Virus genome (UHGV): UHGV-0175782
Length of the DNA: 60,645 nt
Strand: one strand, 5' to 3'
Source: a virus
Positions 24,541-24,695 of the stretch are shown one piece after another. Each line of letters begins with the position of its first letter. Within the stretch, counting starts at the first letter, position 1. Position numbers and translations under genes: made by a program. The notes under the pieces were generated by a model. It worked only from the letters and a program-made list of their open reading frames with translations, made no database searches and was not told the origin of the DNA.

Positions 24541-24559
24541 AATGTTTCACTGAAACATT
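24541..24559. repeat. Perfect 19-bp palindrome aatgtttca-c-tgaaacatt
   Basis: 9-bp arms, 1-nt centre; overlaps the stop codon of the minus-strand small ORF. Confidence 0.6.
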
Positions 24560-24695
24560 AAGTAAGCCAGTGCATAATTCCATTTTTTACTGACCTTAAA
24601 AGCAAAATCAAAACGATGATGAGGATAATAGCCAGAATCTGGCTAATAATAGGCGCATCTAAAAATGCACTCAGGAACTGAAAAAAAGCGTTCAT
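24558..24695 (-). CDS. Small hydrophobic peptide, 45 aa (possible membrane peptide or type I toxin-like)
   Basis: Not in ORF track; ATG with AAGGA about 8 nt upstream; translation MNAFFQFLSAFLDAPIISQILAIILIIVLILLLRSVKNGIMHWLT. Confidence 0.35.
   Translation of the reverse strand: MNAFFQFLSAFLDAPIISQILAIILIIVLILLLRSVKNGIMHWLT

Follow-up and report, generated by a model that had tools for sequence, protein, structure and literature searches.

The viral genome UHGV-0175782 carries, between pmgV and the lxr/humD/phd-doc region, a compact minus-strand cassette whose 45-codon open reading frame (ORF) looks like a real gene for a single-pass membrane peptide. The 60,645-nucleotide (nt) stretch that was analyzed, referred to here as the window, is by its sequence a P7/P1-type phage-plasmid, and the region of the cassette matches phage P7 and P1-type phage-plasmids at 98%. 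We tentatively read the cassette as a type I toxin-antitoxin-like module or an RNA-controlled small membrane peptide. The evidence that bears most on this reading is the retention of the frame, a promoter with an nrdA-derived upstream half, a leader that is better conserved than the ORF and contains a promoter on the opposite strand, and a palindrome around the stop codon. P1 is among the best-studied phages and a standard genetic tool, and P1-like phage-plasmids spread resistance genes in Enterobacteriaceae. The reference annotations appear to put the genes of the cassette on the wrong strand, and the locus is uncharacterized and mis-annotated in a model phage.

A small ORF with the features of a membrane peptide gene

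The ORF translates to MNAFFQFLSAFLDAPIISQILAIILIIVLILLLRSVKNGIMHWLT and exists as a first-pass annotation of the sequence had reported it, on the minus strand at 24558-24695 and with a product of 45 amino acids (aa). That annotation described the product as essentially one transmembrane helix, and the analysis agrees: a single transmembrane helix, followed by basic residues, is predicted, and the best 19-residue Kyte-Doolittle window scores 3.1. With this hydropathy and its length, the peptide falls within the size and hydrophobicity range of type I toxins (<60 aa). Only two ORFs of 20 to 60 aa in the 60-kb window have both a Shine-Dalgarno (SD)-like motif and a 19-residue hydropathy of 2.6 or more, and the 45-aa ORF ranks at the top. 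The AAGGA motif that had been noted upstream is present, although at 9 nt rather than about 8 nt from the start codon.

The ORF had been called unannotated, which is correct for the reference records of P1 (AF234172) and P7 (AF503408), where it is omitted and upfM, upfN, and upfO (upf91.3-91.7) are given on the plus strand. It is, however, called "hypothetical protein" in the SJ46, JL22, and RefSeq/PGAP records (WP_000123562.1), and an exact-sequence look-up of the peptide returned "hypothetical protein" names only. No second copy was found in the window; the one candidate, a tblastn match at 56833-56919, sits in an alternative frame of a 639-aa gene and was rejected as a chance match.

Copies of the locus were collected from phage, plasmid, viral-contig, and metagenome sources and fall into three identity bands: the P7 type, to which the window belongs, the P1 type, and clade C, which is ~81% identical. 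The intact copies (>60, representing 7 unique nucleotide versions) always have exactly 45 codons, an ATG, a stop codon, and an SD at 8 to 9 nt, and no other frame of the region persists in all three clades. When the window is compared with clade C, 33/138 nt of the ORF are substituted (up to 24% divergence) with 0 indels, whereas ~5 to 6 indel events are found in ~160 nt of flanking sequence (the linker, the 3′ region, and the start-proximal region); our Poisson estimate for zero indels in 138 nt is ~0.01. The hydrophobic helix and the terminal basic residues are kept across the clades. The conserved core of the peptide spans residues ~4 to 30, and the C-terminal half is evolving near neutrally; in the comparison of the window with clade C, the N-terminal half of the ORF is 81% identical and the C-terminal half 71%.

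Natural disruptions of the ORF consist of insertions of the insertion sequence (IS) IS1 at codons 36 and ~39 and of frameshifts at codons 31 to 38. Disrupted copies were detected via N-terminal similarity, and their sample is thereby biased. The two IS1 insertions, both in the 3′ third of the ORF, are independent, one in a clade C copy (codon 36) and one in a P1-type copy (codon ~39) (L075, ~3100-3132, and L096, ~1615-1640, respectively); the frameshifted copies are P0001, P0002, and P0004. A word-indexed protein search and an exhaustive HMMER search of 1.84 billion representatives found no sequences other than copies of this gene that were frameshifted or truncated by an IS.

A probable homologue is present on IncFII plasmids of Enterobacter, Klebsiella, and Citrobacter, which carry a 33-aa ORF, MVLLLDAFLSAPLLSQCAATVFLLLLIWLKKME (L073, 2492-2593; also L074, L098, and L099), with its own AAGGA-N7-ATG. 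The core AFLxAPxLSQ...VF...LIW..K is common to the IncFII and P1-type peptides, which are reciprocal best matches within the window. Many of the identical residues use different codons in the two ORFs, including AGC/TCC serine, and two IncFII versions differ by 5 synonymous changes versus 1 nonsynonymous change. The IncFII plasmid backgrounds have only ~215 bp in common (105 nt upstream plus the ORF), and no nucleotide similarity was found between the P1-type leader and the IncFII upstream region. Because the tblastn E value is marginal, the homology is taken as probable, not proven. On one of these plasmids (L074), the DinQ-like type I toxin gene dqlB is located 1 kb from the 33-aa ORF.

A promoter with an nrdA-derived upstream half

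The predicted promoter aimed at the ORF has an upstream half that closely matches the Escherichia coli chromosome upstream of nrdA (Table 1). The nrdA-like segment includes both DnaA boxes and the -35 hexamer, and the homology ends ahead of the -10; a "nrdA-like promoter" with a DnaA box is already marked on the minus strand at this place in record M95666. The DnaA boxes and the -35 core are invariant in all clades, and the -10 of clade C is TACTGT or TACCGT. The positions of the hexamers place the predicted transcription start near 24948. The P7-type copy seems to have undergone recent conversion against the host chromosome, because P1 and clade C keep the core only. Sites resembling the operator of the phage C1 repressor (ATTGCTCTAATAAATTT, ≤3 mismatches) number 14 in the window, versus 0.2 expected, and none of them lies within 4 kb of the ORF.

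The leader is conserved beyond the ORF and contains a putative opposite-strand promoter

Counted from the predicted start (~24948) to the ATG, the leader would be ~250 nt long. The alignments firmly establish the sequence conservation of its 191-nt core, which is 90.6% identical between the window and clade C and is thus better conserved than the ORF (71 to 81%) and the flanks (65 to 71% across the linker, the 3′ region, and the segment near the start, with the linker itself at 65%). The core is noncoding, because a 1-nt indel breaks the long plus-strand frame. Far upstream of the ORF, an invariant SD-like AAGGAG precedes a mini-ORF, which reads ATG CAA TCA TGA in the window and ATG TAA in clade C; the ATG of a poorly conserved 21-codon upstream ORF overlaps it.

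The leader is predicted to be highly folded (z = -5.8 for the minus strand and -4.7 for the plus strand). The fold obtained from the alignment consensus consists of local hairpins; one pair in them is compensatory, several one-sided changes are compatible with wobble pairing, and the variable columns concentrate in the loops. The compensatory change, U-A to C-G, is in a hairpin that reads GGGUCUG/CAGACCC in the window and GGGCCUG/CAGGCCC in clade C. We claim conserved structure, as modeled, for a few local hairpins only, because a fold test that used the window alone was negative (see below). The SD of the peptide is predicted to be 70 to 80% paired in all three clades (unpaired probability, 0.22 to 0.31), with partners that differ by clade.

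The putative opposite-strand promoter within the leader, TTGACG-17-TATAGT, is named PupfN in the P1 record; it has 10/12 matches and does not vary between the clades. Its -35 is 7 nt away from the left edge of the conserved block. An RNA from this promoter would start near 24773 and would be fully antisense to the leader; as modeled, it folds into three hairpins (z = -4.6). No plus-strand gene is located downstream of the promoter in the P7-type window. A comparison of positions 23800 to 25700, on both strands, with Rfam 15 gave matches far below the gathering scores (E ≥ 1).

The palindrome around the stop codon is most likely a 3′ stem-loop

The first-pass annotation had reported a perfect 19-bp palindrome at 24541-24559 with the stop codon of the ORF embedded in it. 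The palindrome is real and longer than described, with two 11-nt arms around a single nucleotide (TTAATGTTTCA-c-TGAAACATTAA, 24539-24561), and the TAA stop (24558-24560) does lie within it. Three palindromes with arms of at least 11 bp are present in the window, versus 0.045 expected from block shuffles, and no second site resembling this one was found in the window at ≤3 mismatches. It is located in the 75-nt gap between the convergent pmgV and small ORF.

The earlier proposal left open a protein-binding site or an RNA hairpin, and the comparison between clades favors the hairpin. Both the P7 type and P1 itself have the palindrome in its perfect form; folded as RNA, it reaches -8.6 kcal/mol on the minus strand and -9.8 kcal/mol on the plus strand. 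The symmetry of the DNA is destroyed by a 1-nt deletion in one arm in ~30/~80 of the collected copies and by five substitutions in clade C. On the minus-strand RNA, an outer 8-bp stem is nevertheless kept in all variants (-5.5 and -6.2 kcal/mol) by means of a G·U pair and a compensatory change from U-A to C-G. In clade C, the hairpin has -6.2 kcal/mol on the mRNA strand versus -3.2 kcal/mol on the plus strand, where it is lost. The palindrome is therefore most likely a 3′ stem-loop of the small-ORF mRNA that stabilizes or defines its 3′ end, and a dimeric operator or other protein site is unlikely.

Several other functions for the palindrome were considered and rejected. It is not a canonical intrinsic terminator, because there is no U tract on either strand: its stem is A+U rich, the stem is followed by AAAUCUCC on the minus strand and by GUAAGCC on the plus strand, and the terminator scan made no call. 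Its uniqueness in the window and the lack of C1 sites in the vicinity argue against a repeated operator or a C1 operator. A plus-strand promoter predicted over the palindrome (CTGAAA-17-CATAAT, 24550-24578) is not conserved, its -10 being lost in clade C.

Downstream of the palindrome lies a 3′ element, UCCUUGAUG, with an invariant CCUUG core (24529-24533), for which the folding predicts pairing with the upstream SD of the leader (AAGG); the element is also complementary to CAUCAAGGA in the leader (24842-24850). A fold-back of the mRNA, in which CCUUG would join the 3′ end to the leader AAGG, is speculative. On the plus strand, the palindrome contains a three-codon mini-ORF with a strong SD (AAGGAG-N6-ATG TTT CAC TGA, 24530-24553). 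It mirrors the AAGGAG-N10-ATG mini-ORF of the leader (24888-24915, minus strand), which may be a coincidence.

A proposed RNA-controlled module and the evidence against it

From the observed anatomy of the sequence and its conservation, we infer a start site, an antisense RNA, translation, toxicity, and a regulatory logic as follows. The promoter, with an upstream half copied from host nrdA (two DnaA boxes and the -35), would start a monocistronic minus-strand mRNA near 24948. This mRNA would carry the ~250-nt leader, which in its 191-nt core is conserved far above the coding region and which would hold the ribosome-binding site of the peptide in a paired state. The invariant plus-strand promoter at 24738-24766 would produce a cis-antisense RNA against the leader, and the palindrome would form the 3′ stem-loop of the mRNA around the stop codon, between the convergent transcription units. 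Translation of a membrane-active peptide would thus be restrained by RNA structure and by the antisense RNA, and transcription would be tied to DnaA and replication status, not to the phage C1 repressor. Because of this tie, the cassette would be active in the plasmid prophage.

Several results weigh against this reading. The peptide matches neither Hok, Ldr, Fst, or TisB nor any other Pfam, NCBIfam, or PADLOC model, and the hhalign probability for the peptide versus Ldr is 7.4%. The tblastn E value of the IncFII match is 0.1, which is marginal alone. The C-terminal half of the ORF has diverged as much as the noncoding flanks, the ratio of nonsynonymous to synonymous rates within P1-like elements (0.41) is not significant, the 19 amino acid changes equal the expectation for random placement (permutation P = 0.43), and the frame stays open by chance in 42% of simulations. 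For the leader, one test took its minimum free energy fold from the window only and so chose it independently of the alignment; here 32/46 changed pairs are broken in clade C versus 29 under the null, which is not significant. No terminator was found after the putative antisense RNA, where only a 13-bp stem with a poor U tract is present, and in P1 and clade C the plus-strand promoter could simply serve hot. The literature search on the locus, which did not extend to the P1 genome paper, returned nothing beyond listings of upfM, upfN, and upfO as untested or nonessential. Finally, all comparative tests cover only three clades, so that their power is low throughout.

Protein-level selection within the P1-like elements is therefore not demonstrable, and the sequence evidence for it is weak. 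The first-pass annotation had named conservation across P1-like genomes as a check: the frame, SD, ATG, and stop codon are kept in three clades, and the pattern of synonymous and nonsynonymous changes is not significant. Its suggestion of a type I toxin or small membrane regulator is partly supported. The helix and basic residues, the retention of SD, ATG, and 45 codons in three clades, the leader with its putative opposite-strand promoter, and the stress- or replication-linked promoter, with no C1 operator in the vicinity, are in its favor; the lack of a match to any known toxin family and the weak protein-level selection are not.

More ambitiously, the cassette could represent an unrecognized type I toxin-antitoxin family in P1-like phage-plasmids, with a captured nrdA promoter, an IncFII relative, and a role as a second addiction or stress module beside phd-doc, which shares the region with the cassette and with LexA-regulated genes; we consider this proposal unlikely. 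If it were true, synthesis of the toxin mRNA would report DnaA and replication status because the promoter was captured from host nrdA, and the family would span phage-plasmids and conjugative plasmids because the peptide has a distant IncFII relative. The ultraconserved leader would then be the overlap of toxin leader and antitoxin RNA. If the cassette does encode a membrane toxin that RNA controls and a DnaA/nrdA-type promoter drives, as in our preferred reading, the toxin would found a new family with an unusual link between replication status and toxin expression, and it could aid plasmid-prophage maintenance or stress responses alongside phd-doc.

Comparison with known toxin families and type I systems

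Searches of Pfam, NCBIfam, PHROGs, and PADLOC with the peptide gave nothing significant, the best match being phrog_1184 (unknown function; E = 0.058). Pfam and NCBIfam models for Hok/Gef, TisB, ShoB, Ibs, and DinQ-like toxins gave noise-level matches only. Homology to Ldr/Fst, prompted by a common A-P-[IVL] motif, was not supported by Pfam and hhalign: the window, clade C, and IncFII peptides had no match to PF13940 or PF13955 at E ≤ 10, and LdrA and LdrD sequences scored 1e-24 and 1e-27 against Ldr_toxin.

In its layout, the cassette appears nearest to ldr/rdl and hok/sok, and in its promoter logic nearest to tisB or dinQ. The ldr/rdl loci of E. coli (LdrD, RdlD) share with it a small single-helix hydrophobic peptide, the pattern (D)-x-A-P-[IVL]-[IL] before the helix with W and basic residues after it, and a long 5′ leader containing an antisense promoter that faces away from the ORF. 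They differ in that no sequence homology is detectable, the peptide is 35 aa there versus 45 aa here, and the cassette is located on a phage-plasmid, has a DnaA-box promoter, and has a predicted antisense RNA. Like hok/sok and the plasmid-borne killing loci of the hok family, the cassette is carried by a plasmid and would have a highly folded mRNA, a possible 3′ fold-back onto the 5′ leader, and, within the region that the antisense RNA would target, a strong SD and a tiny or short ORF upstream of the peptide ORF. Unlike these loci, its peptide lacks a Hok/Gef domain, its putative fold-back helix is just 5 bp, and its upstream ORFs do not overlap the peptide ORF, which excludes mok-like coupling.

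The systems tisB/istR-1, dinQ/agrB, and zorO/orzO are type I toxins with stress promoters, long processed leaders, and ribosome standby sites. The cassette resembles them in that a DNA-stress or replication signal would govern its transcription and in its leader of ~200 nt, which is predicted to be structured, to sequester the SD of the peptide, and to leave an SD-like site far upstream exposed. It differs in its promoter, which is of the DnaA/nrdA type and not of the LexA type, in the absence of sequence similarity, and in its putative antitoxin, which would be a full cis-antisense RNA and not, as in those systems, a divergent RNA that matches over a short stretch. Relative to the E. coli nrdAB promoter itself, ~135 bp with both DnaA boxes and the -35 are 98 to 99% identical, but the homology does not reach the -10, neither the NrdR boxes nor the nrdA leader is present, and another transcript follows.

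Alternative explanations

The peptide might be translated and nontoxic, a small membrane protein that serves the lysogen in a regulatory or accessory capacity (for example, by modulating a host membrane protein, superinfection exclusion, or lysis timing), with expression from the DnaA-controlled promoter and with the long leader controlling translation in the ordinary way. Everything that speaks for a real gene fits this explanation equally. The region is dispensable for lytic growth, and the ORFs annotated next to the locus were scored nonessential (PMC10695390). An ORF intact in 227/229 plasmid records (≥80% aligned) is not suggestive of a costly gene. Left unexplained would be the conservation of the leader far above that of the protein and the invariant, strong, backward-facing promoter within it; in addition, a near-neutral C-terminal half and a loosely constrained hydrophobic core would be expected of a pore-forming or membrane-perturbing peptide more than of a specific protein binder. 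We consider a nontoxic role possible but improbable.

It is somewhat less probable that the ORF is untranslated and that the product is a noncoding RNA, either the leader, as a transcript of the nrdA-like promoter, a small plus-strand RNA initiated by the promoter at 24738-24766, or both; the downstream 140 nt would then be open by chance and through constraints at the RNA level. The conserved element is indeed the leader and not the ORF, the permutation test found no synonymous excess, and the simulations above leave the frame open by chance in 42% of cases. The better-conserved N-terminal half holds a conserved local hairpin and the sequences that pair with the SD, and the C terminus is broken by IS1 or frameshifts in several natural copies. 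However, every clade retains the ATG and a correctly spaced SD despite a linker of only 65% identity, the ORF has no indels beside indel-rich flanks, and the hydrophobic helix and terminal basic residues are retained. The 5:1 synonymous excess in the IncFII homologue and the lack of an Rfam family match also speak for a translated product. If the peptide is not made, the 191-nt leader remains an unexplained conserved noncoding element.

For the palindrome alone, an alternative is that it is the operator of a dimeric DNA-binding protein that controls either the end of the pmgT-V operon or the plus-strand promoter predicted over it, which the P1 record names P1upfM/P2upfM. Chance would hardly produce a perfect 23-bp dyad, and the hexamers of the predicted plus-strand promoter overlap it. 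Against this, the palindrome is unique in the window, the 1-nt deletion shifts the half-sites in ~30 of the collected copies, clade C has its five substitutions and has lost the -10 of the overlapping promoter, and the changes keep pairing in the minus-strand RNA only. We know of no match between the palindrome and the operator consensuses of CRP, Cra, LexA, or the ParB box A. An operator is accordingly a very unlikely explanation.

That the real genes are the plus-strand upfM/upf91.3, upfN/upf91.4, and upfO and the minus-strand ORF is spurious is barely credible: these genes are annotated in AF234172 and AF503408, with plus-strand promoters predicted by the same annotators, but upfM has no equivalent in clade C, upfN is 102, 65, or 42 aa long and broken by a 1-nt indel, and later automatic annotations choose the minus-strand ORF. 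Because their frames are not conserved in clade C, upfM and upfN are probably not genes.

Distribution and setting of the locus

In total, the locus is present in 229 plasmids of Escherichia, Salmonella, and Shigella in PLSDB; 227/229 records align over at least 80%, and the ORF is thus intact in essentially all P1-like plasmids that carry the locus. Among complete E. coli genomes, the cassette is found in 216/5,426 (~4%), nearly always on a plasmid. It is absent from D6 and RCS47. Scans of viral contigs, metagenomes, and one genome per species revealed no clade beyond the three: the viral contigs gave the same clades and otherwise chance 17-mer matches, the metagenomes gave the same three clades only, and the genome contigs (one genome per species) gave no relative.

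In clade C, the cassette adjoins a type I restriction-modification gene where the window has pmgV (24120-24482, plus strand), and because of this difference in neighbors the cassette appears to behave as a module of ~0.5 kb (roughly 24483-25010). The coordinates of its parts are collected in Table 1.

Table 1. Features of the cassette and related sites in the window
Feature	Position	Strand	Remarks
45-codon ORF, single-pass hydrophobic peptide	24558..24695	-	Translation, alignments
Shine-Dalgarno AAGGA (GAGGA in clade C)	24705..24709	-	9 nt (clade C, 8 nt) before ATG 24695-24693
Perfect palindrome, 11+1+11	24539..24561		11-bp arms, 1-nt center; includes TAA stop
3′ element UCCUUGAUG	24526..24534	-	CCUUG core invariant
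Conserved leader core, 191 nt	24731..24921	-	Window versus clade C
SD-like AAGGAG (24910-24915) and ATG (24897-24899)	24888..24915	-	AAGGAG invariant; opens 1- to 3-codon mini-ORF only
21-codon upstream ORF	24826-24891	-	Poorly conserved
Hairpin GGGTCTG/CAGACCC	24857..24875	-	Compensatory U-A to C-G in clade C
Opposite-strand promoter (PupfN)	24738..24766	+	Invariant in all clades
Predicted sigma-70 promoter	24956..24984	-	-35 TTGCAA (24979-24984), 17-nt spacer, -10 TATTGT (24956-24961)
DnaA boxes TTATCCACA (24996-25004) and TTATGCACT (24984-24992)	24984..25004	-	Invariant in all clades; P1 record note
nrdA-derived segment	24966..25100	-	~135 bp, 98 to 99% identical to E. coli chromosome upstream of nrdA (ypaB locus)
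upfM/upf91.3	24665-24778	+	P1/P7 record; no counterpart in clade C
upfN/upf91.4	24779-25087	+	P1/P7 record; 102, 65, or 42 aa with different starts; 1-nt indel breaks frame
C1-operator-like sites (examples)	2333-2349, 17959-17975, 33732-33748		Motif match

The hot gene of P1 is replaced in the P7 type by the minus-strand upf93.6 (25558-25914 in the window). In P7 itself, an IS903 is located between the cassette and upf93.6 (L002, 3305-4361), which is absent from the window (~25300). The other perfect palindromes of the window with 11-bp arms are located at 216-239 (CATGTCGCCAACCTTGGCGACATG) and at 23761-23785 (AACTATCCGGATATTCCGGATAGTT), the latter within a 338-aa ORF (23107-24123). Elsewhere in the window, a 141-aa ORF is followed by small hydrophobic ORFs of 54 aa (4325-4489) and 35 to 36 aa (4486-4596); these ORFs, at 3900-4596, are presumably tciA, tciB, and tciC of the P1 map.

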